64,000 nucleotides of DNA. Origin: Ophelia neglecta. Taxonomy: Eukaryota. The stretch covers positions 63,054,001 through 63,118,000 of the forward strand of contig OZ260661.1 in assembly GCA_965285935.1 (NCBI GenBank), given 5' to 3'. Below are positions 8,798 to 45,610 of the stretch, one piece after another. Each line of letters starts with the position of its first letter. The stretch's first letter is position 1. A model generated the notes under the pieces. It was given only the letters and a program-made list of their open reading frames with translations, was not told the DNA's origin and ran no database searches. Position numbers and translations under genes: made by a program.

Positions 8798-9688
8798 ATG
8801 GAAGAACAAGACTCGTCCTCCTCCCACCTTGGGCCTCCCGCTGCAAGGAAAGGTATGAGCAGTCGCAGATATAGAGGTAATATTTCCCTCAGAGCAGGTT
8901 TATGTCTACCTCATGGAGGAAGAAAGCTCAACTATAAAGGTCCAAAATCGGATTACTATAGATCGTCAAGAGCGATGGAAAGTGATCGAGGTGACTCTAG
9001 TCAACCGCCATTGGCGGTAAGGAGGTATATTGGCGGTTACAATTCTCGTTTGGAACAGTTATCTGGCGACTTCATATACAGACGCGACCCATTTTGCCAA
9101 GCCTTGGAGGACTGTCCTCGAGTCTCAATGGCAGTAGTCGACAAGGCCATCAATCCAGTAGAAATAGTAGCCGAATTTGGAAAGGAAGAGAAAAAAGCGC
9201 TTCCGGCTTATTATTATACGCAATCCGGAAGACAGACGATTAAAAAGAATAAGGGAAATGATTCCTTAAAGGATAGTATTAAATCACCCAACTCATCTGC
9301 CCCTTCATCGCCTAGATTTCAGGCAAAACGTCGGTTTGGTGGTGAACCGCAAGGGGGCTTTGCTAGTCCGGAGAAAAATTTCCAAATATATTTTCTTCCT
9401 CCGAAACAAAACATGTTGAAATTTAATATCAAAGACCCTGCTACAGATTACGCTTACGCTTTGCCACCTCACATGCAGAATTTCATTGTCTCGCGAGAAT
9501 CGACGGAATTTTCGCGCGAAGTGTCGAACATGACATTAAACTCGACATACGGTGAATCAGTGCCAAGTTTTCCGGGAATCATTCATGATCATCCTCGTTC
9601 AGCCAAGTCGCACAATGGATATGGAAGACACCTCGGACACAGTTCGAGTCCATTTGGCCTGCCTGGCAGAGTAGGGTCCTTCAATTAA
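8798..9688 (+). CDS. Uncharacterised intronless basic S/R/G-rich protein, 296 aa (orphan paralog A)
   Basis: An open frame of more than 900 nt in AT-rich DNA, GC-richer than its flanks. ATG at 8798 in good context (ACAATGG), stop TAA at 9686-9688, AATAAA near 9963. Shares motifs with the ORF at 13718-14455. Confidence 0.8.
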   Translation: MEEQDSSSSHLGPPAARKGMSSRRYRGNISLRAGLCLPHGGRKLNYKGPKSDYYRSSRAMESDRGDSSQPPLAVRRYIGGYNSRLEQLSGDFIYRRDPFCQALEDCPRVSMAVVDKAINPVEIVAEFGKEEKKALPAYYYTQSGRQTIKKNKGNDSLKDSIKSPNSSAPSSPRFQAKRRFGGEPQGGFASPEKNFQIYFLPPKQNMLKFNIKDPATDYAYALPPHMQNFIVSRESTEFSREVSNMTLNSTYGESVPSFPGIIHDHPRSAKSHNGYGRHLGHSSSPFGLPGRVGSFN

Positions 9689-12600
9689 ATAGTATAAACA
9701 TATATATGTGACGGACTAGAATTACGGAGAAATACCGACTAGATGTGAAATGTGCTTTATCTTATTTTGGAAAATATGTGCTTAATATTACTCCACATTG
9801 CAACATTTTCAGTTGTACTAGCTTATATTATCATAAAGCCATACCTGTTTGTTACTGACCAATCAGAAGCCACTATCATCTGTACGTGTTCCATTTCTCA
9901 AAAGATGTTTGTGACTATAGTTTGAATAGCCAACGTGGTTGGTCACAATGTAATTTAATGAAAATAAATTGTGTTTGCATTTGAGTGCAAATCATCTATA
10001 TATTCTATAACTTTGAATTTATAATTTGGAATTTGGAATAAAACGAGAAACTCCATGAAAATAAAAAAAAGAATAACAGGACCGCTATGTCGTTGAATGA
10101 ATGCAATATTGTTCCAGCTGTAGGCATTATCAGATGCGTGTGGTTCGCATGTAAAATTACACTTAAATGAAAATTATATATGGTAAAATTCACCAGCATT
10201 TGAGACGTATCAATTTTATAATTTGGACACTTGTGCACAAGGTCAAGCTTTTGAGGGGCTCTAAGGCAGCCTACCGCCCCCCCCCCCCTCCGCACACACA
10301 CACCCACACACCCTCACACACAATCACAAATTGGTTTAATAAAAGGAGGGTGTAATGGGCCTATTTCATTTTCGAATGTTTTTCATAGATCCTGTGTCGA
10401 CAAAGTATGGGAAAGTGTTTTTTTTTTCGTAATTTCAACATCGGAGGACCGACCCCCCCCCCCCCCCCCCGACCCCCTACACTTACACACAAACTGACTC
10501 TTCGGGAACCCGGGCGTGCAATGCATATACACCGAACCTAAGAATCACAAATACAATGTAGGTGCAAAGTCCAATACAACTTTCCATTATGTATAAATCT
10601 CGGACATGATAAAGACAGGAGACGGAAAATTTATGGCCAAAAAGCTCTTCACTTCGGTGCGCATAGTTTCGTTTAGGCCTACAAAGGAATAACAAATATT
10701 GTTCATATATTGAGGTAACATAAACATGTTTAATTTAGTACTTAACCTGTTTTTCTGTTTGACAAATTATTTCTTGTAATCACTAGGCCTATTGCTAATC
10801 TATTATGTTTTAAGAAAATTAAGTGCGATTGAAAAATGATAATTAGGCGTACGTGTAGACGTACTCCTGTACAGCAACGGTATCGGGTCAACCGTTGATG
10901 GAAATGGCTACTGGCAGACCGTAACACGCATCAACGCTTCGAATTCCCTGACTACTTACCAAGAAAGTAAATATTGAACAATCTTTTCAGCCACTTTGAA
11001 AACACTCACCGGGATTATAAGGGTCCCCGTCAGCCGACTCTCATCTTTATAGCAACGTGCTTCATGTCTCTTAAAATCATGACACACGTGATCAATGGGT
11101 TCAGATCAACCACTTTGTTATCAAATATCACTTGGAGCTCATTATCAGGCTTTGATGAAGGCTAGAAAACATGTAAATGGCGTAGTGTTCAAACTCTTGG
11201 GACCAAGTGTCTTCCACCTCAGAATGATCTCAATAAATAGCAACCTCGAGGGCAGAAGCTTTCTTTTACTTGTGCTGTTGTCATGGAGACCTTAATGATA
11301 TTTCATTCAGCTGCACGAGCCTCCGGTCTAAGCTATCGTTAAATTAAATAGTCCCTGACACGACACTCAAGTCGTGCAGGAAAAACAACCAACCAATGTC
11401 AAAGTCTAGATTCCTAATTTGAATGGCCTCAAGAAACTGTAAATCCTAAAGTCGCACTATTGCATGCATATTCGAAAGTGGGTTAGACTCTTGATAGTTT
11501 TAATATTTTAAAGTCTCAAATATTATTTTAAAGTCCGTATTTTAAACCAAGAGATCAGAGACTATGCGTGTTCACGGTTTCTTCTTTGACATATTGATAT
11601 GACAACACACTTGTATCTGCATAGACCTGTACATAGGGGTAAACAATTGGCCCATAACTCATTTCGCTGCCATTCAATTTTGCATGTCAGTCCCCATCCC
11701 AAAGAGGTTCTTTTAACGCGTATTAATCCTGTTATAAACACCCTTGGCAGACACCATTTCATGCAATTTTCAAATAAAATTTCTTGTCCCAACCACATTT
11801 CAATACTTATATAGCTTATCGAGGTTTCAGAGATCATCTTTAGGTATTTAATGTTTCTTTGAAGACAAAAATCAACAGTAAAAGACAAAGCTCGGAAGAC
11901 AGATAACTATAGAAAGAAAAAAAAAATTATTTTCAAGATAAGTTGCTGACATTTACGCCTCAGTAAGCGGGCGATAATAATCGATTTTTGTCGATATAAA
12001 ATATTTTATTTTATCTTTAAAAAACCACTTTAAATAGATACCTAATCTTGTTTAAATTAAACGTTAAAATAGATTTCAAAATATCAGATTACTGGCGTTA
12101 TTGTGATTTCATTGAGTTTTTTTCCATTATAAGAAGGCTACTTCAGTTGAGTTTTTGACAAACAAGCGATTTTATATTTACACAGTAAGCTGAAACCATC
12201 TATAGGAGGCATGAATGTGCACATTTAGGCATACATATATATTTCTTTAATGAAAATTTAACCATGATGCACCATGAGATGGGATATTTCATCTCTAGAC
12301 GCAATCGGAATCAGTTAAATGTTGGCTACAAAATTATTAGGGATAGGGTACAGGTGCAGTGGAATTCTGGTAAATCTTCACTCCTTAATTTTATCCGTCT
12401 ATCACATAAGAACACCGATTTGTTACCAGCATACCTGTGCCAAATAAGTGGTCTTTTGATAAAAAAAAAGAAGATTATTTTTCGTCCTCTAACAATAACA
12501 CAAGACACTAACTCTTGTTTCGAGCACGCTTGTGATCGAGGGGGATATTAATTATGTTGGTCAAAAGCTCGATCACTTGTTGGGTGGTTGTTTTTTCTTA

Positions 12601-13717
12601 ACAACAAGCAGCCTATCATCTACTGATACTCGTTTGCTCTTATAGACTTACGAGTATTAGATCAAGGCTGTCATATATAAAGTTAAGGCTGGAGTGGATG
12701 AGATCATTTTAATGAATCTGGGGGAATCGATGCTACAATTAAAAGGGGAAGAACATAAATAACGTGCAATTCGTAACGTACTTCCGTTCATTGTCACCCA
12801 TATAGGTGTTATGTTTCTTTCCGTCAGTTCAATGTGGAATAGATATCGGCCGATATTTGAACACAAAACATCAATACTAGACAGTACAATACAAAAGCAG
12901 CACTAGAAATTGCTTCTAAATATGGGTCTTTGATAATTAACGTTATTTATAGGCAAATGTGTTGTTTTAGGACGATATTATGAGCGCATATGGGAGAAAG
13001 AGGTCTTATCATTCCACCACAACATAGTAGTCCCCTCCATAGCATGACGTGGACTTTCAACCAGAGGACAAAGCTGATATCCCTCTTCACAAGTGACCAA
13101 AGTTTGCATATGGCCGAGAATTGCGATAGCCTTTCGGGCTTTGTGATTTTCTGTTGGGCTACTTCAACCATCGCCATAAAGCTCTTGTTGGCTGTAAATG
13201 ACCCACACGCCCGATATTCATGAGCGCCACAGTAAACAATAAAGGAGCCTTAACATTTGCATTCTGCGTGGCTGTGTATGGCAACAAGTCGACATCGGGC
13301 GAAGATATCATGAGATAAGAACTCACCTTGTAAAGGATAAGACGAGATACTCTTCAAACTGACAACAAGTGTCGATAGCCAAGCAAACAAACTTTATGAT
13401 TTGAAGTTGCATTATAAATACGTTGCATTATAAATCTACAGCTAAACTGGTCGTTTGCTGTGTTGCTTACACGGAGGATTGCACAAGGGAAAAACAAAGG
13501 ATTCAACACAGGTCGAGTTTGTGCTTTGCTAAACATTCAACGTAACATTTCTATGGTACAGCCTAGGCACCGCTCTTAAGTTACTATATCAACATTGTCC
13601 CTTCTTGACCATCGCTATGGCTGTTGGACACGCCAAAACAGAGAAAGGGCAACCCCAAACTTTGCTACAGTAAAAATGACAACATTGATTGTTTCGACTA
13701 CAACACAGGAAAAAATA

Positions 13718-14455
13718 ATGGAAGGAGAAACATCGGGTCGGGATGGCGATGGATTCCAAGAGGCAAAGGTTATGGTTTCAATACCCGGTAATTCCGGTAC
13801 GACGTTTGAAAGAAATGCCATAGAGAAACTTCGGCTAGAAAACCAAAAAATCCAAAGATTTGTATATCCTCCCGACGTTGAAACACACTTCAGTGCAATA
13901 TTGAAACAGGGACCAAAATTTCTGCAGGCATATGTCGATAGGGCAACACAACAGGATAATTCCCATAATGAATTTGGACGAAAAGCGAAGAGGTCTCTTC
14001 CCAATTATTACTATGTAAACAGTGGGGATCCTGCTAGTAACAAATGGCTAAAGAGTAGAGCGAAATGCCTGAGACCTCACTCTCGTTTGTCTTCAGCGTC
14101 TCCGAGACCAGCCTCCAGGCCCGCAAGTCGACAGAGTAGGCCTACATCCAACCAACTTCCTGGGATGGAAAATCCTAGATGCTTCGCTAGCGAAGAAAAC
14201 AACTTTGAAATCGTAACTTCCCTAGAGTCGCTGTCGATGTCGTATCGTAGCTGGACAGTATCCGACGTCAATTTGCGAAAAAGTCATCATGCGTTTCATC
14301 GATTTCCGGTCATGCGTTCGGTTAGATTCGGCGATATTCGAGTTGATTCCGTGAAACCACAAGAAGCATACAGATCTCTTCCAGCAACTCCGCTGACGTC
14401 TTCACTTAAAGGGGCCACTTCGGGAAACAGTTCACTGCGTCCTCAATCATCCTGA
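13718..14455 (+). CDS. Uncharacterised intronless basic S/R-rich protein, about 245 aa (orphan paralog B)
   Basis: Frame open 13595-14455. Best-context ATG is at 13718 (ATAATGG); an alternative in-frame ATG is at 13676. Contains EFGRKAKRSLPNYYYVNSG and FASEENNFEI, matching EFGKEEKKALPAYYYTQSG and FASPEKNFQI of paralog A. Confidence 0.8.
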   Translation: MEGETSGRDGDGFQEAKVMVSIPGNSGTTFERNAIEKLRLENQKIQRFVYPPDVETHFSAILKQGPKFLQAYVDRATQQDNSHNEFGRKAKRSLPNYYYVNSGDPASNKWLKSRAKCLRPHSRLSSASPRPASRPASRQSRPTSNQLPGMENPRCFASEENNFEIVTSLESLSMSYRSWTVSDVNLRKSHHAFHRFPVMRSVRFGDIRVDSVKPQEAYRSLPATPLTSSLKGATSGNSSLRPQSS

Positions 14456-20500: not shown

Positions 20501-21006
20501 GTCATATATGCATGCTAGCTTGTATGCGCTTCACCTTTAATAGTTAATAAATTTTAGGTTCTAAGTCATGGTTAGATACTAACTTTTCCACTAAGTGTCC
20601 AACCGTTGAAGTTTGAATTTTTTTCATGTGACCTGCCTACAAAATAATTACGTTTACGTGCATCCATTTGTGTTCATGGCTCTTTCATAGTTTGTACTTG
20701 TTTTACGTCAATAAATTTTATGATATCTGTTCCTTTGTTGCAAACAACTTTAATAGCGATAAGCCTATTTCTGGGCTTTTATTCATTAAAATTTAGTCAA
20801 TTATTTGTATGAATGTGGAATTAATGACTTGTTCATCTCAATATCTAGCAAGATACCTTCAGGTAATCGCAGTCATGCCATCTACCGAGAGCCATTTGTA
20901 ACATTGTAAACATGGATTGTGGTGTTTGAGACACACACTTGCGGGGGTCAAAGTCCATCAGAGATAAGGACGACCCACATTTACCTGTATCGGCCATGAA
21001 AACAAA

Positions 21007-23018
21007 ATGACGGGCTTCTATGGAGCATCGGAATATGTGAAAACATCGTTTATAATTTTACTTATAACAGGCGTGGTACATATTGTGTCGTATGCCGCGC
21101 CTTATTGGACGACACGGTACGATGGACATGCCGGCTTGTGGTGGGGATGTACGGACGGCGTCTGCTACGAAAGATACAATCTGTGGGTAGAAGGTAAGCA
21201 TCAGAAAGGAGCCTTAACGTTATAATGTAAACAAACTAGAAATGGACACAACATGAACTCTTCCTATTAATTTGTTACGTGTGGTACATGTCATCTTTAT
21301 TCGCAATTTTTATACATAAAACTTAGCTCAGTTCGAAGTAGCGGAAGAAAATTTATCTTAATTTTATGACGTCATTTGACTATTACTTAAAGACTCAACC
21401 CTTAATGAAGCACAAAGCTACGTCAAGTTAAGGTATAATAAGAATTTTATTTTCTTACAAGCTGAGCTGCAATAATGAACATTAATATGGAAGGGTTTAA
21501 CACTAAAACATGAAAAAAAATGCTTAGAAAGCAAGAATGTTGCAAAGGTGCTTTAAGAGATTAAACCGCCGGAAGTTTAATGAACAGGTAAAACCGGAAC
21601 CAAAGGCATAACATTATTCATATTACAAATATGCACTGAATCTCTTAATCCTAAAGGTGTCGCCATTATCGAGCAATGTAAATGATTAAGCCACAATTTC
21701 ATGCTGCAGCTAAGCAGTATGGATGTTCTGCATGAATAACTGAGCATCAATAATCGATGCAAAAAATGTACTTTAAGAGAGAAAAAATGCTTCATGAACA
21801 AATAATATTATAACATAATAAAAGTTAGATCGAAAACAATTGTTTTTTAATGATGCGATATTCTAAGTGAATTATATGATAAGGATTAGGTTCCATAATA
21901 TCGGTCCAGGTATTTTGTCAGTTTTATCCCTTGGAAACATATTATAGACCACTATTGTGTGACAATTGATTTTTCTTACCGGTTACCTGTTTGCAAGCCT
22001 ACATTAATAAACTGGCGTAAAATGGTTAGGCTAACCTTTATCTATCAATTTAAATTTGGCAATTAATCCTGAGATAATAGCAGGGACACGTATGAGGTAG
22101 TAGAATTTTTTTACCCATGCATTTAAACTGGGCCTGAAGTGAGCTAAATCGATAATCACCATGGGATGCGGTGAGATTATTAAGTCCAGGGTTTTGTGTC
22201 AGTCATGGCGAATAAGTGCATAGTTGCCGTTACTTTCCTTACAGAATACTCGGATTTGACGTATGAATACAATTTACTGGGCCATATTTCCAACAAAAAA
22301 AATATACCATAAAAATGTTTTAAACACGATCGATCTTTCCATTAACTTACCAAATATCTACAAGTTTGAGATTGCTGCACTTTGAGTTTAACCATTCATT
22401 TCGTATGCAATATCTCTAGCCATCAAAATAGTTCAAAATATATCCTGGATGACCCTATGCATTTAAATGAATTAAGCTTACGGTACAATTCTGTAATTTG
22501 TTTCAGGGTGGATCAAGGCTGCCCAGACATTTATGACTGGAGCCTTAATCACGTGGTTTGGGGCAATGGTCTGCCTGTTTTACTTCATTTTCCACCGGGA
22601 ATGGGAGGAGGACAGAAGGCTTGTCTTTGTGGCTAATATATGCACATTTCTAACAGGTAAACCCATGATCATCGGTGAAGAAAAATGATTTCCTTTATGT
22701 TCGTATGACTGTATAATTTTAACGTTTTGAATGGTTATAATAAGAGACATATGAAAATTATAAATTAATATCTTTAATGAATATAAGTAAACCCTAAATT
22801 CTATTGACATTGTTTATCTATTATTTCCAGCTTTATTTGTATTACTGACGGTTTTGATCTGGGCTGGCGGTGAATATTTAGGAAGTGGTGAAGCCCTGAA
22901 CTGGCCCTACGCCTTCGCCTGCGCATGCGCCATATCATATTTCATTTGTGGAGTATTCTTATACCTTGAAATGCGGTCACCGGTCGATCATGACAGAGAA
23001 AAATTGTTGACCATTTAA
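21007..23018 (+). CDS. PMP22/EMP/MP20/claudin-superfamily tetraspan membrane protein, 174 aa
   Basis: Exons 21007-21193, 22507-22656 and 22831-23018; GT-AG introns, both phase 1; 525 nt in total. Four hydrophobic segments and the signature PYW...GLWWGC..GVC in loop 1. Confidence 0.9.
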
Positions 23019-26000: not shown

Positions 26001-27144
26001 TTATCTGGTTCATTTTTTATTTCAGTGTGTTCTGGAGTCTGGCAGAAGTACAGGCAAAAATTTATGAAGTTTTCTGTCTGCTAGATAGCAATAGACTAAA
26101 GAAACAAAATACTACGAATGGAAATTGCATGATAAAACTATCTTGAAGGTTATCACACGTCAGATCTTTACGTCAATGCATACCTCCATTGATAAGGACA
26201 CGTGATAAGTGAACAGAAAAACAATTATTATGACACCCGTACTTGATGACTTTTAATTAATGAACTGTTGTAGTAAGAGACTGTCACTCACAAAAAAAGA
26301 AAAGTTACAGGGTTAACCACACCGTTTATCCCCTCACTGAGTAAAGCTATGATTGGCATCAGGTTTTCAGTAGGCCGTATCACAGTTAATTGTACTAAGG
26401 ATTCTAAATGTTTGTCCCCAATTTTGAATTTTGAACCAAAACGTTTGAAGTATTCATGGACATCGGTAATTCAGAAGTGGCGCTCTCAAATTTATCATAT
26501 ATTGCTTAATAAGCACGCAGAAGCGTTGTTTATTTTAGTTGGTATTTACATGTAAATTCCTAGATGACCTCCCGTCGTATCAATTTACCTGTGAAACTAT
26601 TTATTGGCTATCGTGTAACGGTGACACTTTAAGGAGCGACCAAAGCACGTGGCCCTAGAGTGGCCAGAGATATATAGTTGGTGGATTGAGGGGGCGAGTG
26701 AAAATTACATCAAGCCACAGGAGGCCACACCTGCTCTTTCCCTTATTTGGTCACCCAATTCACAAACAGAAGACAAGCGAGCAAATGTACAAGGCGAACC
26801 TTTACGTGTTTCTTTGTTGTTCACGATGGGACGCTATTTAGGTCATTCCTGCAGGAAAGCGGTATAATTGTAAACCCGTTTCAGGAATTCCATGATGACA
26901 TTTAATGTAACTTTTAAAGAGCTATTAAACCATAAAGTCTTGTTGTGAGATTGGATCCCACCATAAGTTTTTTAATCAACGACGGTTCTTGTTTTATACC
27001 GACTTGTTCATCTTTGACAGAGTTTATCTTGGGACAGGAATCTTATCATTTTATATGTGGATGAACGTAGCGGAAGTTCTCGGTGGACAGGGGGCCCTAT
27101 TCACCTCCAAAACGGCGGGAGTTATCATAAGCCGCTACCCGTGC

Positions 27145-28630
27145 ATGGCTGGACTGAGGTCGGCAACTGTGGGTACGCGAGTAGCCGCTATATTGATGTT
27201 GTTTTCCCTATTCTTTCTTTTGGTGTCGATAGCTTCACCATATTGGATACAAGCCCACAATGAGCTGGGCTCATCTCATTCTGGATTGTTTCACGTCTGC
27301 ATTCTCGGAAAATGCGATGAATTTATTCACCACAATATTGCAGGTAAGCATTTCCCATCCTTCTGACAACAATGGAACTTACTAGTCATCACGAATATTA
27401 TAGTCGTATAATTCCAGTGAACAAGAAAAAGAGACGCGTCACTAATACATGGAAGCTTGTTATATTGCTTTAATTAATACCCAATTATTATTTTCATGAG
27501 TTCAATATTACGACTCGGAATAAATGCAGAAAATACTGATCTAAATAATATATTATGTGCCTATGGTTAGTTCTACCTGAAAAGATACCGGTACATGTAA
27601 TTTTTTTTGTTAATAGGATGGTTCCGGGTGGTCCAGGCATTCATGATACTTAGTGTGTTCACTTGCATAGCGGCCGATGTAGCGCTGGTTCTGTACATCT
27701 TTCTTATAGCTCTAGAAATATTCAGGCGCCGCTTTCTCATGGCGGCATTCGGGTTTAACGTTACGACAGGTATGAAGAACGAAGTTATAGTCTTATAGCC
27801 TATCTAAATATAAAATACACCATTCATAATCCCTTAGTTTTTTTTCGTACGCAAAGATTAGGCCTATTATGTTCCCCTGTTTTTGACCCATGATAGAATA
27901 TTCTCATTCTTCCCTGAAGATACAGCTATAAACAAATTTACAGAATACAATAAATTTACAGATGCGAGTATTGTAGTGGCAGCGTAATGGAAAAAGATTG
28001 ATATTCCTTAAAAAACTTTTAAGTTGTTTTTGTTCCTTCTTCTATTGTTTGTGTGTGTGAAACTGCATAAAAATAATTTCAGAAATACTAAAAAATATAC
28101 CTCATTTTCCTCCGTTTAATTAATTTGGTGCTTACGCATGCTACGATGACAATAATAGAAGCATTATAAAAAGGTTAATAGCTAGGAAAATTACAAAGTT
28201 TTATTTAATTGCAGCTGTGTTGACCCTCATTGGTATAATAGTATATGGAACTGACGAGGGGACAGACATTTCTACATTGTCATGGGGCTTTTACATGGCA
28301 ATAGTCTCGGCATTCTTCAATGTAGCCTCTTCAACTGTTTTGGCGATGGAATTCGTACACAGGCCGCCAAAACCAGTCGATGAACGGATAATATTACAAC
28401 CACAAACTTCCCTGGTGGAAATTAGAGAGTCCAGATCAGCTTCAGTGCTCTCGGTTCTCTCGCCTACTCAAAATCCGGAACAGCGCCCTCTGAACAAAAC
28501 GGAAGTGCGCATGCGCAGTTACTCAAGTAGTGTCGGAAGTCCGCCATCATTTGGCAGCCCACTTGAAACTGTAATGTCCTTGGATAGTGACAATAAGTTT
28601 ACATATGATTCGAAAGCTATTCCAACGTGA
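27145..28630 (+). CDS. PMP22/EMP/MP20/claudin-superfamily tetraspan protein with Ser-rich C-tail, 255 aa
   Basis: Exons 27145-27343, 27617-27769 and 28215-28630; phases 1,1; 768 nt in total. Signature SPYW...SGLFHVC..GKC, then WFRVVQAFM and LSWGFY. Intron positions equal those of the upstream paralog. In-frame upstream ATGs could extend the N-terminus. Confidence 0.9.
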
Positions 28631-29008: not shown

Positions 29009-32000
29009 TTATCTATCGGCGATAAAGTTTTCAACGCTTAAAGAGTGGGTGCTTCTGGATCGTCGAAGTGGGTGTCCATCGAAATTGGAATACTCTCGGT
29101 AGCCATCTAATCGTTCATTGATTACGAAGCATGTTTCAGACAGGGAACCGGATGAACTAGCATTTCCAAAGGATGCAAAAGTAGCCATAACATTGAAAGA
29201 GTTATCCTTATTGTTAAAGTTGTAAATGTAATCTTCCCAAAAACCTTCATCCAAAAACGAAGAAAGTGGAGCTGGGACACTATCAGATGGGTCTACCGTT
29301 TCGACATGGTCCCCGTGTTCGATCCCAGACGAATCTGGGTGCCCTTCTTTTTTTGCACCAAGACATGATGTTTCAAAGGAGCAAGGCTGCACCATATCAA
29401 ACTGACTTTCGTCCTGAGGATCATGTTCAACTTTTTCTATTTTCATTAGTTTGTGTTTCGCCGAGAAGTTATCGTTATCTTTCCCAATATTAGTACTGGC
29501 ATCATTTATTGTGTTGAGAGGATCGGAAACAACATTCTCAGTGATTAAACCAATCAGCATCTCATTTTCCTCTACTTCAACTTTTGCCTCTAGACTGCTG
29601 GCTGTAACTGTTCCAGACGTGGCATTCGTATAACCGGTAATAGTATCTGACTTGGCACTATTCTCTAGAACAGAAGAACCATTAGAAGGCAATACCACCA
29701 TTGGTATATCACCTTCCTTTATTTCTTCTGTGGTAGTCGTTGAAGACAAGCTGTCTTTTTCCCGGCCAACAAGATAATTCTTTTCCGTGAATATGGTTAT
29801 CTCACTTTCCAAATTATGTATCTCCGTTTCGACACTCAATGCAAACTCATCGACAGCCCCTTGTAGAAGAACTTCATCGTGTGACAGTAGAAACGTTTTA
29901 CTCTCAACTTTCTTTATATTTGAGAAATGACGTGGAGAGCTGCTTATTTTGTCTGACTCTTCCTCTAAAGACTTGGGACAGTTTCCCTCTTTTTCGTTGT
30001 CAATTTCAGATTCAATGTTCATGGCCGTTAAGTCATGAGTATTTTCATTCTCTGTACATACACTGTCTTTAATCACAATGGAATGGTCTTGCTCTAGATT
30101 AGTTGCAAACTTATTATGCACTTCCTCAAATGAGTTGTTTATCATGTTATTTCCTGAGAGAGTTTTCATTTGACATTCATCTAAACTGTAAATCATCATG
30201 GCTGTCTCCAAATCTACTTCTTTTGCGTCGGTAATACCGCAATTGTCTTGACATGGGAAATCCATGCATTTTGGATCGACATAGAGACGCTTGATCATCA
30301 AATATAAATCGCTGACAAAAGCTTCAACTTTTCTAGTAGCCAGCCTACATGATTGCTTTATTTCATAATGAATACTTATTATATCCCATCCATTGATAGA
30401 TAAAGTCAGAAAAAAGAGTGCCGTGGTGTAATAGACTGTGTATAAAATCACCCCTGGCAGGTGACACACTATGCACAGCAGAAACGTATTGACTATAAAA
30501 CCAAAAAGTAGACCACACACCATTGCCTCAGCAAATTGCCAAAATGACAACATATTCCACAGAAGGTTCAACTCATCTAGCGCACTCTCAACGAATTTTA
30601 ATGGTGATTTGGCAAGAAAGTCATACATTTTCCCTACTAATTCCAGGACACATTTGGCTTTAGATAAGTGGAAAAGGCACGTTTCTAACGTTGCATAAAA
30701 TTTTCTGGTGTGTTGATGCTTTTGAATTCGCTTATACTGTGATGCTAAGTATCTCGAAGAACGTCGATAGTATATCTTCTCTCCGTTGCTTTGGTCGATC
30801 TCAATACATATATCACGCCGTTCAACTACTGTATAAAGAGCCAACCAAATCATATTATAGACATTGAAAAAGGACCATTCACCAGATACACCATACGACC
30901 TTTTGCCTTTGTCTCTTTCAATTCCATGGAAAGTCCTGCATTTTGTCAACCCGATGAACATCCTGATAAGGACAACCAAAGCAAAGGTAAAGGAGAAGGC
31001 AACCATAGATATATTGTCTCTGTACGCTTCCAAAACCAGACTGAATCCGAAACCCAATTGAAGGATTATTTCAGAAACTTTGTCAGCCATCCCCACAAAG
31101 CAATACACACTGCCGCATGTTACATTGAGAAATACATCATATAAGAAACAAATCAGTTTTAGTACGAGGCGGACCTCGATAAGTATCCAGGCTTTAAAGA
31201 AGTCTAGCCAACTCATATTTTTATTGAGAGGTTTGGCGTCGAGGACGTCAGTAATAAACCAAATATGCCATTGCAGTAGCCGAGAACTAACCCGCTGAAG
31301 CTTTTGCGGTAGGTCACCAAAAAACTTAACCGCAGAAACACAAATTCTCACGCAGAACCCTAGAAGTTCCCAAATGCGATAAGTTTGCTTGAGGAAGAAT
31401 GTTCTCGATGCTATATCTACTAGCATCTTTTTCTGGGTCAATTGGTCGTTGTTTATCATATGAATTTGCTGCCTTTTCCAACTCTTGAAGTTCTCAACAA
31501 TAGTGCAAAACGAAGACTTCAACCACCTGGCACATGAACATATACCGCTCAGCTCAATTATGTGGCCTGTGAAATAAAAGAAAACATGTAGTCTATTCCT
31601 AGCCCTGTCATGGCTAATTTCATTATGCATAAAGAGAATTTATCTATAGGGCCTATTGCTTTAATGAATAAAAGTGACATGAAACTTGGTTTAAAATGAA
31701 AGCAATGCCTACCACACAAGGGAACACCAAGCCAATTCAATAACTTTAAAAACAGAAGTCCGATCACAATCTGTAAGGCGTCAAGTGAAAAACACATGTT
31801 TTATGCCTTGTACGCTTTAATGAATCATCACCAAACATCCACTAGCTTTCAGAGCAAAGCGTCTCTCTATGTTGTGTAAGATTTCGTTTTCCGTTCGTCA
31901 TCAAAAGATGTGGCTGCTCCGTCAAGATGGCTTTACCCTGGAATCATATAAACCAACATGAAAAAAACTGGTGAATTCTACAAGCAAACTCGTCAAATAC

Positions 32001-34402
32001 CATTTCTAGAGATAAGTTGGAAGTATGCTCGAATTTAGATAGGAAATGGAATTATACATATTGAATTGAATTGAATTTATTGCCATAAAAAGAAACAACA
32101 ATGACATATACAAATGGTATGATATACAATCATATACCAGTAGCCTAATGACATTTCATGACAAAGGGAGAAGGACACCACACTGGTGTATGTACCCCCA
32201 CATCAGATATAACTACTAAATTATAAATGTTTCACCATACAATGTGCAGAGCGAAAAAAAAAGACGAAAAATAACTAGGAATAAACAATAACATTAATAT
32301 AACATAATAAAGGAAATATCCCTCCACCCCCCCCCCCCCCCAAAAAAAAACACTATTTGTAATATCTTATGCATACACCAAAGAACTTGTATGACAAAGT
32401 AAAGACAGTAAAATATTAGTATTATGTCACAAATCACCCTGTACAAGAAGAAAGGCCTTTACATTCTGTTTAAATGATGAAATTTTTATGTCAGGCACTA
32501 AAGATGGCTGATATTATGTTTCAGATAACAACACCCTGATAGCATACACCCTTCTGGGAAGCTGCTAAATTATATTTAGGCACACGCAACAGGTTAGAAC
32601 GACGGGTCTCATATGCATGATAGTCACTATTTTTACAGAATACATCCTTAAAGATAACTGGCAATACATTATTGTGAACTTTATACATGAACAAAAATAT
32701 TTTATACTTGTATATACTGAACAAGTTCAAAAATTTTTATTCCTGGTATATAGGGCCAGTACTTGCCCTGTATGATGAGTAAGATTCCACTCTTAAGATT
32801 TTCTTTTGCAGCTTGACAAGAGGATTCAAGATTTCCTGAGTAGCTCCCCCCCCCCCCACACACACACACACACCTCAATACAATACATAAAATATGGAAG
32901 TATAAATGTATTATACAAAGTTTTAAGAATTGATTTGAGAAGCAATTTCTTTGCCCTACAAATTATCCCTAGGCCTTTACTTATTTTCTTTTTGATCATA
33001 TTAACATGGTCAAACCAAGACAAGGTCGAATCTATAAAAACCCCCAGGAACTTTGTCGAATTCACTTTTTGAACAGTTTCACCACCTATAAATAAATTAC
33101 AATTGTCTGGCATACTCAACCGTTTATAACTGAACACCATATAATGAGTTTTTTTAATATTGATGTATAGCTAATTAACTTCTCACCAAATTACAATTTT
33201 CTTCAATTCCGTGTTCATACTCTCAACCATTTTGTTGATACCCTTGCCAGTAATAAAAACATTGATGTCATCTGCGAATAACACAGGAAATATAATTTCT
33301 GATACACTTGAGATGTCATTTACATATAATATAAATAAAAGTGGTCCGAGAATTGACCCCTGAGGGATACCGCAAGTAATAAATTGGACCCTAGAATTCT
33401 CATTATCATATGATACAAACTGGGTACGTTTGGACAAATAACTTTGAATCCATTCATAGGCTATACCACGTATTCCATATTTAAATAATTTGCTCAATAG
33501 TATTGCATGATTCACTGTATCGAATGCCTTCGAAAAATCCAAGAAAACTCCAATTGCTTCGTCCCCATTATCCAAAGCATTAATTAATTTATCTACAAGC
33601 AACATAAGAGCAAGATTTGTGCCATGCTTTTCCCTAAACCCAAACTGATATTTATACAAGATATCATGTTTGTTTATAAAGGATATGATTCTATTATACA
33701 TTAAACGTTCAAGAACTTTTGAAAACAGAGGCAGTACAGATACAGGTCTATAATTGGAAATTTTTGTTGAACTATCACCTTTGTACAGTGGTATAACTTT
33801 GGCTTTTCACAAACTAAATATATATTAACAGTTCTATATTTATACAACGTGGCATCAACAAAATAGATGTCGGCAAAACTTGTATGGCTATAGTGTTTTG
33901 GTTTTTTTTTTGCACACACACACTCCATGAAAGACTTCTTTGCCTCACGCGACCTTTTTTGTCAGTACCTGGACACCTTTCTTTAGCCTATTGGAAGGAG
34001 CAATTATTTATTTTCACTGTAAATTTTCGTACACATTAAATTTGAACAAAAAAGGCACTGCTGTATGTAATACGAACAGACGATGAAAAAAGAAGAAGAA
34101 AGAAACAAATTATCGTGTTAGTAGTTCTTTACAGGCCCAAGACCCGGGGGCCTAACGAATCGTCCTAGACGAAAACGAAAACCATGCGGTAGTGAGACTA
34201 TAGCTATTGAAAATGTTCCAGCAGGTTCTTATTAGAGCAGTAGAAAAGACATCATATGTTAAGTTGCCGTTGAATTATATATGCGAGTATCTTTACCTGT
34301 AAGAATGGGATGTTGGCTCGTCATGAATTGGTCTGAATTCTTCCTCTTGCCTAGGCAACTTATTAACACGTTAATTGTTTGTTTCAAGAGCATTGTTTTC
34401 AT
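29009..34402 (-). CDS. Uncharacterised protein of about 887 aa: hydrophobic multi-TM N-half and acidic low-complexity C-half
   Basis: A 2.6-kb open frame (29009-31630) with a strong acceptor ttttcttttatttcacag|GC at 31566. Candidate exon 1 is 34402-34297 (MKTMLLKQ...HPILT, donor ACAG|gtaaag). Phase 1 joins in frame to give GHIIELSG. Exon 1 is less certain than exon 2. Confidence 0.75.
32062..33812 (-). mobile_element. 5'-truncated, degenerate non-LTR retrotransposon (CR1/L2/jockey-type RT, ORF2 C-terminal part plus 3' UTR)
   Basis: Motifs AKVIPLYK, NYRPVSVLP, YQFGFREKH, DFSKAFDTVNH, GIPQGSILGPLLFILYVND, FADD, KFLGVFIDSTLSW and HAYETR, broken by stops and frameshifts. The 3' end is AATAAA followed by an (ATTCA)n tail at about 32062-32081. 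Confidence 0.92.
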
Positions 34403-36982: not shown

Positions 36983-39900
36983 TCATGTTGATTCCTTTTC
37001 TTTCTTTTTGGAAACTGGTTTGGACGACTCTGAAATAAAATAAAAGTCTGTTAATAGATTTGTAAATCAAGGAGAAAATGTAATAAATTGCAGTAGAAAT
37101 TCACCATGTAAATAATCCGAAGTCCATTAACTTCTGAAAATGAAAAGGGAAAGATATATAACTTTTGAAGGTTTGTGAATTTGACCCCCTGCATCATTGA
37201 TTGACCTAGCATATATCTGAAATCAGTAAACAATTTGTAGGTGAAGGAATACTTAAAAGAACATTATAATTCCTACATTTGCCAGGGATTACCAACAAGA
37301 AGTCTGTCATAAGTTTGAACCCAGAGGTTAAGGCATTGAGCTGTAAACATACAGCTGAGCATCTTGGAGTAGATCTAGCTTTTCTTACATGTCTTTAGTC
37401 ACCAGCAGGAGGAAATTACAGCATAATCATGATCATTCAAGTATATTTTTGTTCTCAAAATTTGAGACATGCCAATATACAGCTTTCCAAATCTCCCTTA
37501 AATTTTCATGTCCTTTAGTTTATCCAGTGAAATCCCAGCCCACACTGCCTCGGCCCAGAGAAGGGTGTGGAGGGATCTACACTTTGTGTAGGCAGTCACA
37601 TCCTTGTAGTATGAGGAGGATTAAACAATAATTGTCATTAGTGGACTCTGACTTCTGGTCTCATACGAAGGGGGCCAGTACCTGAATTACTTTTAATTAT
37701 AACTCGGGAATTCAGGCCTGAAAACAGGAGGTGGAAGACAACAGATAAAACCCCTCATTTCCCAATATACTCCCATAAACCCATCTAAAAAGGTTTAAAG
37801 TCTTGGGAAAGCCAACCCCGAACTAAACCTGGCCACATGTTGGCCATTTAGGGATTTGGCCAACTGTTTTACTTGCAAACTGTTTTCTGATTTCAGCCAC
37901 CAATATCTAACGTGAATTTTGTGTGATGTGTTCCAGCTGTAAATGATGCTTACCGGTATATAAGAATACCTGCAGTATTTCCACAGTATTATGCCTAAAC
38001 ATACAAATAACCAGTACTATATCATTTGCTATGAATAAATAAAGAAGCCTTTAAGTAGTATTGCAGACAAACAACAAGTGTAATTGCATATTTACAGAAA
38101 ATATAATGGTATAACTATTTGTTTTTATACACAGGATACATGTATAATTTCTATTGCATTCCTAAAATCAAACTGATCATTTTTGGTTATTTAAAACTTT
38201 GCCTTGCCATAATTTATTTGAAGAGGGACCTACTTGTGTTTGGACATCAGGTGATTTCTTACAACAGACAAAAACTTACCCCCCCCCCCCAAGGCAAAAC
38301 TGCAACCCCTAACCCCTTTGCATTTTTGCCTTGTTTATTACTTACTCTTATCTTTTTTACTATTCTTTCTCTGACTTTTCTTAGCTTTCTTTATACTAAT
38401 ATCTTCACTTCTTTCTTCAGCCGATAATCTTTTCTTGCTTGCAGACACACCAATTTCAGAAATGTCTGTTTCAAATTGTTCATATTTCGGCCTCTTTTTT
38501 AGTTTCTTTGTCTTCACAACTGGCAATTCAGACCAGAAGCTCTCATCTTCTTCATTATCTTGAAGTGTATTTGCCACTTCCTTTTCATAATGTTCCTTTT
38601 GGGAACCAATCTTGTCTAATTTCTTCATATTGTCCATTGTCCATGATGATGACAGTAAAAGACTATTCAGTCTGGATTTCATGTAAAACTGGAATTGAGA
38701 AACTCTCTATGACATCTTGATATCAAAAAATTACTTTTTAAGCACTTAAATTTCACTGATCTAAAAAATAATTTACTTAAAAAACTAATCTAAATTTGAG
38801 AAATTCATTATTCAAAAGTATCTTGTCGTACTTTGTGAAGGAGGTCTTTTGAGTTGAGGTCATGAATTCTCACAAAACGGTCTAATCCACAAGACACCAC
38901 AACATCCATTGACGGATGGCATTGAACGCATCGGATCCCTCCAGAAAATCCTTTATATTTTTGTACCAAATGACCTGGAATGTAAGGTTGCCACATTTGT
39001 GTAAATAACGCTCAATAAATCCATATCATATTAACCACTAGTATAAAACTGTCTGATGCATAAAACTACCATTAAGCCACAAGTAAAATAATTATTAATT
39101 TTGCCTCTGACCTAATTTTTAAGTTAAAATAAGGCATCTGTGGAGGTTTAATAATACTACTTGAGCAGTTCATTATACACCCCATTAGTGTACCTTTTCC
39201 TCTGATATCCAATAAAGCCATGTTCCCCTGGGTGTTTCCAACAACAACTTGACTGAAATTTACAAAGTTCACCTGGTTTATTTTTAGTTTTATTTGACCA
39301 CTATTAAATCACAGGATTAACAAGTTCAAACAAAATTTGGGACATAGTGTGAGTTTGAAAAACCAGGGAATTGTCCTTACTTTTCTCCAGGTCGGAGGGA
39401 CATGGTTGTGATGGGGTATTCATCAAACTCCATATCTAACACAGGTCTTCTCTGAGGGGTGCTGGGATCATAAAGCCTTACCTACAAACATACAATTATA
39501 TAAACAGTTTCTAATCATCACAATGGTTGTATTGGACAACAAGTAGTCTAAAAAAGGGTATATTACTGTTTGCTAAGCCTGTTTCTGAATTTGCATCCAG
39601 TCAGCAAAAGGAAGGGGATGTGCACTATTGTTCAGCCCCAAACATATTTGAAAATGTATCATGCATTCACCTGGTGATGTCCTGTACAAGTGACGATCTT
39701 TTGAGAATCAGGGACAAAGGCTGCATCTGTCACCCATACTGGTACTCGCAAACACAACCAATCATCTCTCACCTGTATGGAAATATAAATAAAAGTCCAA
39801 AATAAAAAATTAATATGAACACCTGTACACCATAAATGTACAAATTTTGCAAACAAGTCATCAAAACAAAACCAATAAGCTACAGCCCTGAGAGCTACAG

Positions 39901-42811
39901 CCAGGCAACAATGTTATGTGGGAAAAGTATTAAATTTCAATACCATAGGTAAAAACAACACATCATTTATAATCTTACCGGTGAATGATAAGAGGAGTTA
40001 AAAGGACGGGGGAGTTGATATAAAACAGCATTTGCAATTAATATATTTATTTCATTGTCAGATCTGTATAATCAAATTAAAAGCCCAGATTAAAATCATA
40101 ATCAACTTTATTTCAAATAAAAGAACAAAACAAAAATTGATTTTTATAATAACTTAGCCTATGGTTCACATAAGAACTTACATTTTTGGCTTTGAAGACA
40201 GGTTCTTCTGGAGTTGCCAGATCATAAACTTTGAGGTCATTTTCTTTTCCACCAATTGCAAATAAATTTGGCTGCTGAGCATTTTGTCTCATCTTATACA
40301 CATTTTCTCCTACATTAATTTCAACCTGAAATATGTACAGTAGACATATGTTCAAAAAATGATCATTACTTCAATCTTAGATAACTAATTTTCACCAAGT
40401 TAAGAAAAAGACTACCAGTAATCTCATTCACGATATAAAAGATTCTCCTGTGACCAAAATTATGAATCATTTCTTTAATATCTATTTCAAAGTTCCAAAA
40501 GCTATTCACTCTTCAGAGACATCAGGTTTATTAGGTAATTTTGGGGTTTTACGTGGCTTTCAACACTCATCGGTCATATTGCCAGGTAGGTTTATTAGCC
40601 CCAGTCTTCAGAAAGCCTTGAGACTATAGGTGATGGTCATTGGCAATTAACATGTATTTCAAATGGTTGATGCAGTGCACTCACTCTTTGATCTTCATCT
40701 TCTTTCCACAACTTAACCAAACCAGATTCAGTGCAAGTGATGAAATTCCTAGTAAATAGAAAAAGAACTGTAATCTCTAGTTAATAAAAAGAGAATGACA
40801 GAATAAGAAAAAGATGCTTTAGCAAAATATGGTGGTATAAAAATGCCCCAAAGGTACACAAATTATACTATGTATGGGTCATTTCAAAGCTTTTTATTTA
40901 AAAAAAAACATAGAAATAGTATACCAAGGAATATCTAAATTAAAATATTACCCTTCATATTTGTTAAGACCACGTAAAGGGCCTGTTCCGCCAGTAAAGG
41001 AATGTGAAGAAATTAAATTATGGCTGGACACATCAAATATGTTCACTTCGTGGCTTTTTGTACCACAGCATATCTGAAAAATATTGTACGAGTGTTGACT
41101 TTTAACGGTGTTGTAAAAATCAATTTACTAGACATGCCGAGGCCATTGTTTTTTATTGCAATTTCAGACAATTGTAAATATCAATAATAAGCAGGAAAAT
41201 AAACCTTTGGACTGATAATGAATGATATTGTCACAATGAACTATTTGTTTGACAATTTGCATGTAATACAAGAGGATTGGTCTTGTTACTACCTGTGTCT
41301 CTGCTGAATCACCCCAACACATGACATTGATCTCTTTCTCTTTGTTGATCTCTGCCTCATTATTGAAATTAATCCATTTTTTCTTTTCAACACTAAGGCC
41401 TAGAAATGGAAAATAACATGAAATTTGCAAGATTACTAACCAGAATGATAGATACATGCATATATCTGAAACTCACTAATTAAATGTGCCCACATGTTTG
41501 CCTGAGACAGCGAAAATGCAATAAGTAGATTGTCAGGTAATATTCATATGTGTGCGTATTGAATATGGAAAAAAAAGACCCGTATGACATTGATATATGG
41601 TCCTGTACTGTCAAGATTTAGAGGGGGGTTGTTTCCTGCTGGATCAGGCCCCTACACAGTCGGCACCCTAAAGGACTACCTAGACTTACTATATTCAACT
41701 TATTTTAATAAGAAATCCAGTAAACTTGGAGTCTACATATACTTTTTTATATGTAAAAAAATGTCTACATTATTCGCAACATTTTTCAAATTTGTTGCCA
41801 TACAATGGGCGTGTATAACCTATCGTTGAATCAATATAAACAGCATTGTGTTTGCGGCTGGTATTATCACTCAGTGAGGTGCAACAAAAACACATTTGGT
41901 TCTGAAATATATTTCGGTATTATGGATCAAATCCAAGCGGTGTATTTAAAAGGGGCAACCACGGCAAATCAAGGGCAACCACGGCTAAACCACTGGATAT
42001 TAACCAAAAACAGCAAGGTATTAGGGCTGAATGCTTCAGGATTGTAGCTTAAGTTATTTTTGAATAATTTGCTGGCCATTTAGTAGCAAAAAAAGGAGCT
42101 AACTTCTTCGCCCGTTCTCCGGTGTTTACGTTAGATGGCGGCCATGACACCTGCACATCACACGCCATCTGGTGATGATTGCCCCGGATGTGCAGGTGTC
42201 ATGGCCGCGATCATCCGTAAACAACGGAGAACAAGTTAGCTCGTTTTTTTGCTACTAAATGGCCCGATTGCTCAGTAAGTTATTCAAAAATAACTTTAGC
42301 TACAATCCTGAAGCATTTCGCCCTAATACCTTGCTGTTTTGGGTTAATATCCAGTGGTTTAGCCGTGGTTGCCCTTGATTTGCCGTGGTTGCCCGTGGTT
42401 GCCCCTTTTAAATACACCCAATCCAAGGTATAGAAATATAGCAGATATACACAAAAACATTAGCAGGGGCCGAGATGAAGATGTGAAAGGTCTTTAAGGG
42501 GGCCGTGGGTGTAGAGGGCCGAGCACGTAGAGGGCCGAGTTGACCTGTTAACCCCCCCCCCCCCCCCCCCTCCCCTTAATGATAAGCAGAGCTATGAATT
42601 GTTGGCATCACTGTACTTTAACATTACGAAATTCCTATTTTATCGCCCATGATTTTTGTTGGACATGTTCATGGATTAATTACCAATGAAATAACACTGA
42701 ACCCTCCGATAATTTACTCTAGATTTCCCTTAAAACAATCTAAAAATGTGCACCAATACCTTTTAGTAAGCCTGTTTCTGACCCCACAAATATGTTTTGT
42801 TTATCATCCAT
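36983..42811 (-). CDS. WDR74: WD repeat-containing protein 74 (NSA1 homolog, 60S ribosome biogenesis), about 427 aa
   Basis: Exons 42811-42760, 41399-41293, 41073-40952, 40748-40685, 40325-40182, 39772-39671, 39481-39381, 39252-39194, 38974-38832, 38688-38346 and 37029-36983. All GT-AG, phases consistent, 1284 nt. Motifs VGSETGLLKG, GGKENDLKVYD, FKAKNVRDDWLCLRVPVW, VRLYDPSTPQRRPV, SCGLDRFVRIHD and YMKSRLN. AATAAA near 36951. Confidence 0.95.
40524..40598. mobile_element. 53-bp insertion flanked by an 11-bp direct repeat (probable truncated retroposon with target-site duplication)
   Basis: AGGTTTATTAG occurs at 40524-40534 and 40588-40598, flanking gtaattttggggttttacgtggctttcaacactcatcggtcatattgccaggt. 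Confidence 0.5.
41938..42419. mobile_element. 482-bp fold-back/MITE, non-autonomous DNA transposon with 8-bp TSD
   Basis: Near-perfect inverted arms of about 220-230 bp around a loop of about 25-30 nt near 42160-42187. Ends are CGGTGTATTTAAAAGGGGCAACC...GGTTGCCCCTTTTAAATACACCC. AATCCAAG is duplicated at 41930-41937 and 42420-42427. Confidence 0.93.
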
Positions 42812-45592
42812 GCTGTCGACATGTGCGCGGAAGTAGATCTCTAATGACGTGAAATCTGATTGTCGGATTGAACCAAGATCATGGACCGACGTACTCTTGT
42901 CCTTTTTGTCTTTTTCACACAAAAAGATGTACGTTCCATAAGTTTTTAATCGGTTATTGGTGTCCATTCACAGGTCTTGTTTTGTTTTGAAAAGTTGAAC
43001 CAGTTATATAATAATAGCAAAATACGTTACAATAATTCACTAAAACAATTATAAAAGATTTTTAGGTAGAATATATACATCAAAACCATGCATGGGTGTA
43101 GTTGTATGGTGTAGATCAATAACGACGTCCATTGATTTGGATCTCGATGCAGATAATTAACAGGTGCATGCACACATGTATGAACCTAAAACCTATGCAA
43201 CTTAATATAATCTAAACCGAGACCCAGAACATGTGTCTGTACATGTAGCCTCAATATGCACCGACAAGTGCGATATTACTCATTATTGAGTCAATCTCTT
43301 CAAGAGGAAGAAGAAGACTCTTAGCCGTAATTTCAAGCATTTTCATTTTCTCCTGGTCACCGGCCATAAAGGCTACTCAGGTACTCGCTTACATCCAAGA
43401 TGATTTCTTTATCAAAATTGATAAACATTCATTGCAAAATATTAGCAACTTGTCTCAGATTTCATTTGAAGCATTTCAAATTTAAAAAAAAAGCTTTTGG
43501 CACAACCACAAAAATCGTCAATTAAGGGTTTTGCTGCTATAGCAGTTAGTTGTAATAAACAGAACCTCCTACTTCAGAGATACTCTTTACGATGGCAGGG
43601 TTGTTAACTAAATATGTATATTGATCAGGTAATGACAACCCTGTCAGACAGACAGACAGAGACACGCACTAAACCTTTGACCCTGTATCCCATTTGGCCA
43701 CACAGTTTTTGGTATCTGTGATGTGTGCAAATAAATAGATTTATGAAGTAAGTACATGGGCACGCATAAATGATTTATGACAGCAATTTTATTTTTAGTT
43801 GTTCCAGCATTGTCTTCATTTGAATTTGCGAGGTTAGTGGAAAAAAACATCATTTTCCTTGGAAATTCACAGATTTTCCCTGCTTTTCCGAATAATGTAA
43901 ATTTAAATGTTTACCTATTTTTTTTATACAGCAAAAGGCTATTGTAGTCTTTTTTATTTGTAATTCTTATAATTGTTTAACCTACTTTGTGTTTGTACTT
44001 AAGCAGGCTAACAGAAATGTTAAACTACCCCTCTACCCTATGGGGTGCATACGGTTCGAATCGCCTTCAACTTCGGTACTCCCTACAGCTAACGCTCCTC
44101 TGCAGTAGATCTAACTGATTACTGCCTAACAGTCCCGGTTTTCTGTACGTCCGCATGTGGGTGTTTATCTGAACACCAGACGGATATGACGTTTGCGCAA
44201 AATATGTTGAAAGTAAACAAACTTGTAAACTAAGATAAATCTTTTAGAGTTGCACGCACCCCTAGTGCCCTGCAGCCTGTAGTCGCAAATTAGTGAGTAT
44301 TTTATATTAAGTGGTCTACCTCAAATGAATGTGGATTTCGGCCCCAAATATGTTAATTCTCAAGAGCTACCAGCCCTTTACATGTTGACAGGCTCTAAGG
44401 AATAATTGGGTCAGGTCTAGGTCGGGTCACAAGGTCCAATGGTGGTCTGATTATCGACTGAAAAGTCTTGAGTGTCATGTCTTCAAATGCCTTTGATTTG
44501 CGGGATGATGTGCTGATCACCTAATGATGTTATTACTAAATAATCCTCAGGGGTTACTTTAGGACTGTACGGTGTCGACGTTTCTTAAAATTTTGTGATT
44601 GCAGGAGAATACTGACCTGAATATGGGCTTCCGATGCGATTGTTTCTGTTGTTTACTTTCTGAAGTTTGTTGCTGTAACATTAGTATAAGTGCTAATTGT
44701 GTGTTTCAGCCTGTTTTCTAATTGAAGTTTGGTTTCTTAAGGAAACTTTCAGTCGATCATATTTAGCCGAAGAGTTAAGATCTACATGTACTAGTACATG
44801 AGATATTGTATAAGACCCTGTATGAAAGATGTACTGGATAATTACAACCTGCTGAATAGATGGAAAATTTACAATTCAATTTACAGATTTAGGAAAAAAG
44901 GCTTTTGGGATCACTGTGAGCAGGGCAGAATTATCACAGCTGATCACACCGACTCAATTAATAGACTGATGCTGGTCTGAAGTAGTTAATGAACTGAACA
45001 TTAGGGATTGATGGCACACTATTAAAAAGAATATGATTTGCATTATTGTTCAATATCTGGAACCTGTGTCATGTTATTATGGACATAAGCAGTATTGAGA
45101 GTTTCATACTGAAGGTATTTTTATTCCTCGGGGAACATGCCAAGGAGAGAACATCTTACTACACCACAGCCATTCAGCCCCCAAGTCCATACACTGTAAT
45201 TGCAGAGTCGCCTAGGGGACCTCAGTGCCTCCTTTTTTGTTTCATCACTGGTTGGCTATTTGTGATACACTGGGCTAATTGGGTAGTGACAAAAGTTTCC
45301 TCTCTATGGCATCAGCAAAAGGTATATGTATATTAATTAATGTTAATTAAACCAAAAGGGATGTGTATATATTCGTATAGTGTAATTGATTGTGAAGAGT
45401 GAATCTATATGAATGTTGTGAGAGAGTTTTGTTTTTACTGGTTCAAGTAACTACAGCAAAGATAGAATAATATAGAGAAATTTAAGCCAATAATGAATTG
45501 GTAAAATATTAAATTGACACATTTCCTTAAAAAAATATGGTATCCAAAGGTATCCAAAACAATGCTTAAATGTATTTCATATGCATTTACAG
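42812..45592. promoter_or_regulatory. Divergent WDR74/KLHDC3 upstream region (probable bidirectional promoter plus KLHDC3 non-coding first exon and intron)
   Basis: Head-to-head start codons 2.8 kb apart. ETS-type CGGAAGT at 42828-42834 and CRE-like TGACGT at 42845-42850. The first KLHDC3 coding exon is preceded by an acceptor (tttacag| at 45592), so a 5' UTR exon lies in this interval. Confidence 0.55.
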
Positions 45593-45610
45593 TTTTATGA
45601 AGGCGACACT

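Follow-up and report, generated by a model that had tools for sequence, protein, structure and literature searches.

The specificity of protein phosphatase 1 (PP1) is set by its regulators, which are known mainly from mammals, flies and yeast. Docking of an RVxF motif in a groove of PP1 is established for most PP1 regulators, according to PMC6406801 and PMC9813921, and the former gives the consensus as [K/R]x(0-1)[V/I]x[F/W]. This study concerns two open reading frames (ORFs), A (P0001) and B (P0002), which lie about 4 kb apart on the plus strand of a 64,000-nt stretch of the Ophelia neglecta genome (G000:C1:63,054,001-63,118,000, part of a 762-Mb assembly; hereafter the window). A and B belong to an unnamed animal family that was previously unannotated. 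B carries the sequence RSVRF, which meets the RVxF consensus, and it is predicted to resemble an RVxF-type PP1 regulator in its working while belonging to no named family. When the family was compared with the disordered PP1 interactors named in PMC9813921 (PPP1R15/GADD34, PNUTS, RRP1B and spinophilin), the likeness lay in predicted disorder and in an RVxF motif present in B and four other lineages. Additionally, P0013 and P0035 read RVxF-x5-YV-x-F, a continuation similar to the RVxF plus PhiPhi[xF] arrangement described in the same paper. However, no homology to those interactors was found (no Pfam or PDB match), the family has a new core upstream of the motif, many of its members have no RVxF, SILK is absent, and PP1 binding is here a prediction.

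A profile built from five sequences (A, B and P0003-P0005) was run against 1.84 billion proteins and matched 27 of them at E<=1e-3. Cluster look-ups and one further search added the near-duplicates P0030-P0034 as well as P0035, the one member gained from a word-based core-profile search in which 7996 candidates were scored. The family set comprises 35 proteins, 30 of them non-redundant and five near-duplicates. Names were looked up for 20 of the 24 distant matches and gave a species in two only, both annelids: the homologues ELU07651.1 of Capitella teleta (E 2e-9) and KAK2158882.1 of Paralvinella palmiformis (E 4e-9), each a hypothetical protein. An earlier sequence-only reading of the window had described A and B as orphans, which does not hold given the orthologues P0003-P0005 and the wider family; the family and the RVxF motif are both new relative to that reading. 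Its statement that the family is not a recognised one was borne out by Pfam and PDB profiles, which matched no described family. The Pfam scan of A, B and P0003-P0005 assigned no family, and that of the 24 distant members gave only five unrelated sub-threshold matches, each in a single protein. In the open-access literature no mention of the two annelid identifiers was found, LPxYYY strings were confined to antibody work, and the combination of RVxF, annelid, PP1 and sperm did not occur. This supports the view that the family is previously undescribed, as far as the libraries and open-access literature searched can tell.

The family is defined by a core of about 50 residues with the consensus F-x-Y..DP..L..CP[KR]V[TS]..VV...P......FG...KR-x-LP-x-YYY, in which F, P, L, Y and Y are invariant across 27 aligned rows. 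The motif put forward earlier had a spacer of EFG-x5-LP, which the sequences correct to EFG-x6-LP; the rest of it was right. The order of motifs in the family is the core, a variable linker, a second block (block 2, FA-x3-NN), and then either an RVxF or a terminal LPG[KR]. Block 2 was found in 19 of the 30 non-redundant proteins, 30-60 aa after the core and often preceded by [ST]P[RK]-like sites, and a pattern scan found a C-terminal [LAN]PG[KR] in 10/35 family proteins. In seven non-redundant members the protein ends no more than about 55 aa from the core; some of these may be true short forms and others truncated gene calls, and two of the short members, P0017 and P0018, have a common C-terminus.

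The A-B alignment over about 120 aa that had been claimed was reproduced by BLASTP (40/129 identities, 31%, E 8e-8) and by a Smith-Waterman score of 102, which was reached by 0/1000 shuffles (mean 37, maximum 61), and the positions and strand of both ORFs were confirmed. A self-blastn of the window at E 1e-5 found no DNA similarity between A and B, which suggests that the duplication is old. The orthologue of A, P0005, has 44% identity over 99% of A, and those of B, P0003 and P0004, have 69% (98% coverage) and 63%; the between-species identities of A with P0005 and of B with P0004 exceed the 31% between A and B within the genome. The ENA contigs that carry P0004 and P0005 are both 104,571 nt long and are probably one and the same, so that the tandem pair would be preserved as neighbours in another species and the duplication would be older than the species split. 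Conservation between A and P0005 is block-wise, with 38/49 identities for the core, 9/47 for the linker that follows it and 19/25 around block 2. Homologue alignments are collinear over 99% of A and 98% of B, and the description of both genes as intronless therefore stands for the coding part, with the untranslated regions lying outside this evidence. Five single-protein searches of this genome found A and B as the only family members, and an extra weak locus on C5 gained no support from the core hidden Markov model.

Allele data came from three contig sets of unrecorded type, representing at most one sample. Among the listed differences in A, 8 were synonymous and 3 replacement (of 11), giving a pN/pS of about 0.11 (binomial p 0.0005-0.003, varying with transition bias). 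All three listed replacement changes lie outside the core, none of the 9 listed indel rows falls within either ORF, and B had at most one difference in the same contig sets. These data support the proposal, already made in the sequence-only reading, that A and B are real genes and old tandem duplicates under selection. The contrary explanation, that the ORFs are non-functional or similar by chance, has a negligible probability: nothing was found in its favour, and cross-species conservation together with the synonymous excess effectively refutes it.

AlphaFold2 (AF2) models of both proteins have a pTM of 0.25-0.29 and contain short helices only, and the earlier term "domain" was thus an overstatement. 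In the core, AF2 predicts a pair of short helices meeting at a conserved Pro, an FG..KR segment in extended form and, at LPxYYY, a helix of 3 residues; a helix lying within residues 21-40 of this model has pLDDT 88-90. The region of B around RSVRF (aa 203-222) has pLDDT <50 and is predicted to be disordered. Searches of PDB sequence profiles gave 0 matches with alignments A2 and A5, and IgG and p27 only with alignment A4 (E 0.11-1.3). Using these low-confidence models, Foldseek found no match at E<=0.001, and the best Z in a VIA fold search was 2.1, which gives no evidence for a new fold. The best ESM Atlas scores, 0.76-0.78, are leads only, UNC119_bdg among them. The models suggest that the proteins are mostly disordered and that the region they share is a motif module with no globular domain.

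The evidence for PP1 docking comes from the sequence downstream of block 2. RSVRF is invariant in P0002, P0003 and P0004, and FP..RSVRF is common to B and P0013. A first count found an RVxF in 11 of the 16 members that have block 2 and at least 40 residues after it, when 1.35 were expected. A second count was restricted to the sequence after block 2 in 19 block-2 members from 8 lineages, leaving out the 11 proteins without block 2 and the 5 near-duplicates. It found the motif in 11/19 members (shuffle mean 1.5, maximum 7) and in 5/8 lineages, and five lineages were reached by 0/5000 shuffles and by 1/5000 frequency-matched decoy motifs. Among the N-terminal flanks of these proteins, 1/19 contains an RVxF. 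Beyond the consensus of PMC6406801, the scan excluded Pro at the second x. In the 24 distant profile matches the aligned part ends at profile position <=220, by estimate before the RSVRF of B, so the RVxF probably did not select these members. In A, the degenerate NMLKF lies at about the same distance from block 2 as [RK][CS]VQF does in P0006, P0008 and P0015. On these sequence grounds, RSVRF of B probably binds the RVxF groove of PP1.

Several caveats weigh against PP1 recruitment as the function of the family. The RVxF test was post hoc, made after the motif had been seen and several other motif types considered, and the lineages come from a weak tree plus judgement; if P0012 is merged with P0010, P0013 and P0035, the count becomes 4/7. 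A has no canonical RVxF, only NMLKF (NILKF in P0005). No RVxF follows the core in 19/30 non-redundant proteins, including all 11 without block 2, which suggests that the function of the core is independent of the RVxF. P0029 has none and the P0019 group has one in 1/5, and the spacing between block 2 and the RVxF is of two kinds, 11-15 and 36-53 aa. When the tail of B was compared with other tails, the similarity to P0013 was beyond chance (25/1000) but that to P0035 (647/1000) and P0012 (217/1000) was not. Canonical SILK was found in 0/35 family proteins, and PMC9813921 warns that motifs this short can hardly be predicted from sequence. On the allele side, the three runs represent one sample at most, and all 15 differences of X2 over A's contig are accounted for but 6/17 of those of X3 lie outside the list. 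When B aa 52-232 was modelled in complex with an animal-type PP1 catalytic subunit (L043), without alignments or folded controls, the score was 0.17 against a mark of 0.34, which speaks neither for nor against binding.

Some further observations concern PP1 and RVxF-like sequences. P0011 and P0014, which have no tail RVxF, contain KVTF or RVTF within the core at P[KR]VT; this is probably coincidence, because F is rare at that core position. No intronless PP1 was seen among the search matches in this genome. The minus strand at C9:33077134-33095463 carries about 9 long-frame copies of a metallophosphoesterase in tandem, several of them interrupted by in-frame stops. Another 15 contigs, from IMG/VR (L017-L031, several of them giant-virus metagenome-assembled genomes), encode sequences like PP1 (63-78% against a PP1 exon), and L017 has an intact PP1-like ORF of 318 aa.

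Taken with these caveats, the model that we favour, with the balance tipping only slightly towards it, is that A and B are disordered adaptors in which the core anchors to a partner and B-type members recruit PP1 through the downstream RVxF. The core, with its two short helices, extended FG..KR segment and helical turn at LPxYYY, would be an anchor that folds on binding and, present in every member with or without an RVxF, the primary binding module of the family. Block 2 would make a second contact. B-type proteins would then bring PP1 to the target of the core, where A would also act, with weak or no PP1 recruitment. After the duplication the two genes may have divided their roles: B would have retained PP1 recruitment, and A a degenerate site together with an LPG[KR] tail. 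A further proposal, which we hold only tentatively and regard as rather unlikely, is that the core and the FA-x3-NN block form a previously undescribed fold-on-binding clamp on a conserved enzyme or ciliary scaffold, with core-only short forms competing or inhibiting and long RVxF forms delivering PP1.

A different explanation is that these are structural proteins of the axoneme or sperm tail, like microtubule inner proteins (MIPs), which hold on to microtubules or a ciliary scaffold by the core and block 2 and in which the RVxF is incidental or secondary. We consider this possible but doubtful, and it is compatible with PP1 recruitment if PP1 is delivered to the axoneme. The sequence-only reading had inferred a testis or axonemal role, which the present data neither support nor exclude. 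The likeness lies in small size, an often basic (pI 9.7-10), S/R/P-rich composition, predicted disorder and short aromatic motifs; however, at least 9/35 members are acidic (pI<6). PMC10973386 gives PYG, GFG, SNYG and NWE as motif families of MIPs. A simple pattern scan found SNYG and NWE in 0/35 proteins and PYG/GFG-like triplets singly in a few members with no repeats, the signature motifs thus being missing or unrepeated; Mn repeats, ELLEn and DM10 were covered by the Pfam and PDB scans. The ESM Atlas lead to CIMIP4/TEX33 (score 0.76) falls below the level reached by a third of shuffled proteins. Identity with TEX33/CIMIP4 was rejected, with no match to PF15400 and an hhalign P of 0.51 between the family profile and the genome's own TEX33, a separate gene (C8, L112:1501-1842). 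The RFX-like half-site ATGGCAAC that had been offered as support lacks the left X-box half and occurs 5 times in the window. The palindromic site upstream of B is a better RFX candidate, yet it is not significant, as the window contains 12 X-box-like sites when 7.3 were expected and 10/100 shuffles reach 12. A role in sperm or cilia is a reasonable guess from general knowledge and does not come from the present evidence.

Two other explanations concern the partner of the core. That its amphipathic helix (SMAVVDKAI in A) docks the regulatory subunit of protein kinase A or another dimer of the docking and dimerization type, making the family a kinase/phosphatase scaffold like A-kinase anchoring proteins (AKAPs), appears improbable. 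The confidence of the core helix (pLDDT 88-90) and its hydrophobic i, i+4/5, i+8/9 pattern, as in AKAPs, speak for it, but AKAP helices have 14-18 residues whereas that of the core has just about 11 and is bounded by Pro. It is also improbable that the core is instead a kinase/cyclin-docking inhibitor of the Cip/Kip style, in which KR-x-LP would serve as a cyclin RxL site and a tyrosine turn at LPxYYY would plug the ATP pocket. p27Kip1 was the sole meaningful-looking PDB profile match (profile positions 35-57), the core ends like the LPEFYY of p27, AF2 predicts a 3-residue helix there, the build of both suggests folding on binding, and [ST]P[RK]-like sites are frequent before block 2. However, the E of 0.93 for p27Kip1 is at chance level and Pfam CDI (PF02234) was unmatched in every member scanned. 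The genome's own CDI gene (C7, L007:1444-2016), used as a control, gave an hhalign P of 0.35 against the core profile, and the core has neither the N-terminal RxLFG nor the WNF.F (WNFDF) found in that gene. Likeness to the KRxLHY of Inhibitor-2 was also rejected, with a different spacing and no match in Pfam or PDB.

Table 1. Positions of the two genes, their motifs and other features within the window
Feature	Position	Strand	Remarks
Gene A (P0001), coding ORF	8798..9688	+	296 aa
A core motif, aa 92-140	9071..9217	+	FIY..DP..CP+V..VV..FG..K+.LP.YYY; 38/49 identities with P0005
A block 2 FASPEKNFQI, aa 188-197	9359..9388	+	19/25 identities with P0005 around the block
A degenerate RVxF-like NMLKF	9410..9424	+	NILKF in P0005; differs from consensus
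A C-terminal LPGR motif	9659..9670	+	[LAN]PG[KR] pattern scan
Gene B (P0002), coding ORF	13676..14455	+	259 aa; orthologues P0003, P0004
B alternative start, second ATG	13718	+	aa 15
B core motif, aa 62-113	13859..14014	+	Identities 44/52 with P0003, 35/52 with P0004
B block 2 FASEENNFEI, aa 170-179	14183..14212	+	FA-x3-NN
B canonical RVxF RSVRF, aa 214-218, predicted PP1-docking site	14315..14329	+	Invariant in P0002, P0003, P0004; family enrichment
Palindromic X-box-like site GTTACTATATCAAC	13580..13593	.	83 nt upstream of first ATG of B; not significant
RFX half-site ATGGCAAC of the sequence-only reading	13278..13285	+	5 window copies, without left half; chance level
Claudin/PMP22-like gene 1	20968-23015	+	Multi-exon
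Claudin/PMP22-like gene 2	26929-28627	+	Multi-exon
Single ORF	29009-31630	-	873 aa
LINE reverse transcriptase fragment	32829-33806	-	RVT_1, E 8e-31
Presumed WDR74/NSA1-like gene	38341-42967	-	
Near-palindrome, MITE-like	41939-42418		480 bp, 81%
Kelch-repeat gene	45518-57522	+	Presumed KLHDC3-like

The rest of the window holds several other genes and repeats. The claudin/PMP22-like genes form a tandem pair with sub-threshold Pfam matches, and the 873-aa ORF, hydrophobic in its N-terminal half and acidic in its tail, has no Pfam match. Two genes are arranged head-to-head: the first we take to be WDR74/NSA1-like, a label to which Pfam gives no support, and the second is the kelch-repeat gene, presumably KLHDC3-like. 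The near-palindrome, which resembles a miniature inverted-repeat transposable element (MITE), lies inside the span of the WDR74-like gene. Upstream of the window, a 483-bp tandem satellite of at least 55 copies with 97% matches occupies C1:63014001-63040833 (L006-L004) and stops about 13 kb short of the window start.

As an unannotated group of invertebrate proteins in which an RVxF is linked to a conserved anchor of a new kind, the family would extend the set of targeting modules of PP1. If the clamp proposal is true, it would represent a novel type of PP1 holoenzyme in invertebrates, targeted by a module of its own, and might act as a PP1/kinase switch in ciliated cells or sperm. Should PP1 play no part, a new family profile can still be built on the core, and A and B clearly exemplify divergence following an old tandem duplication.

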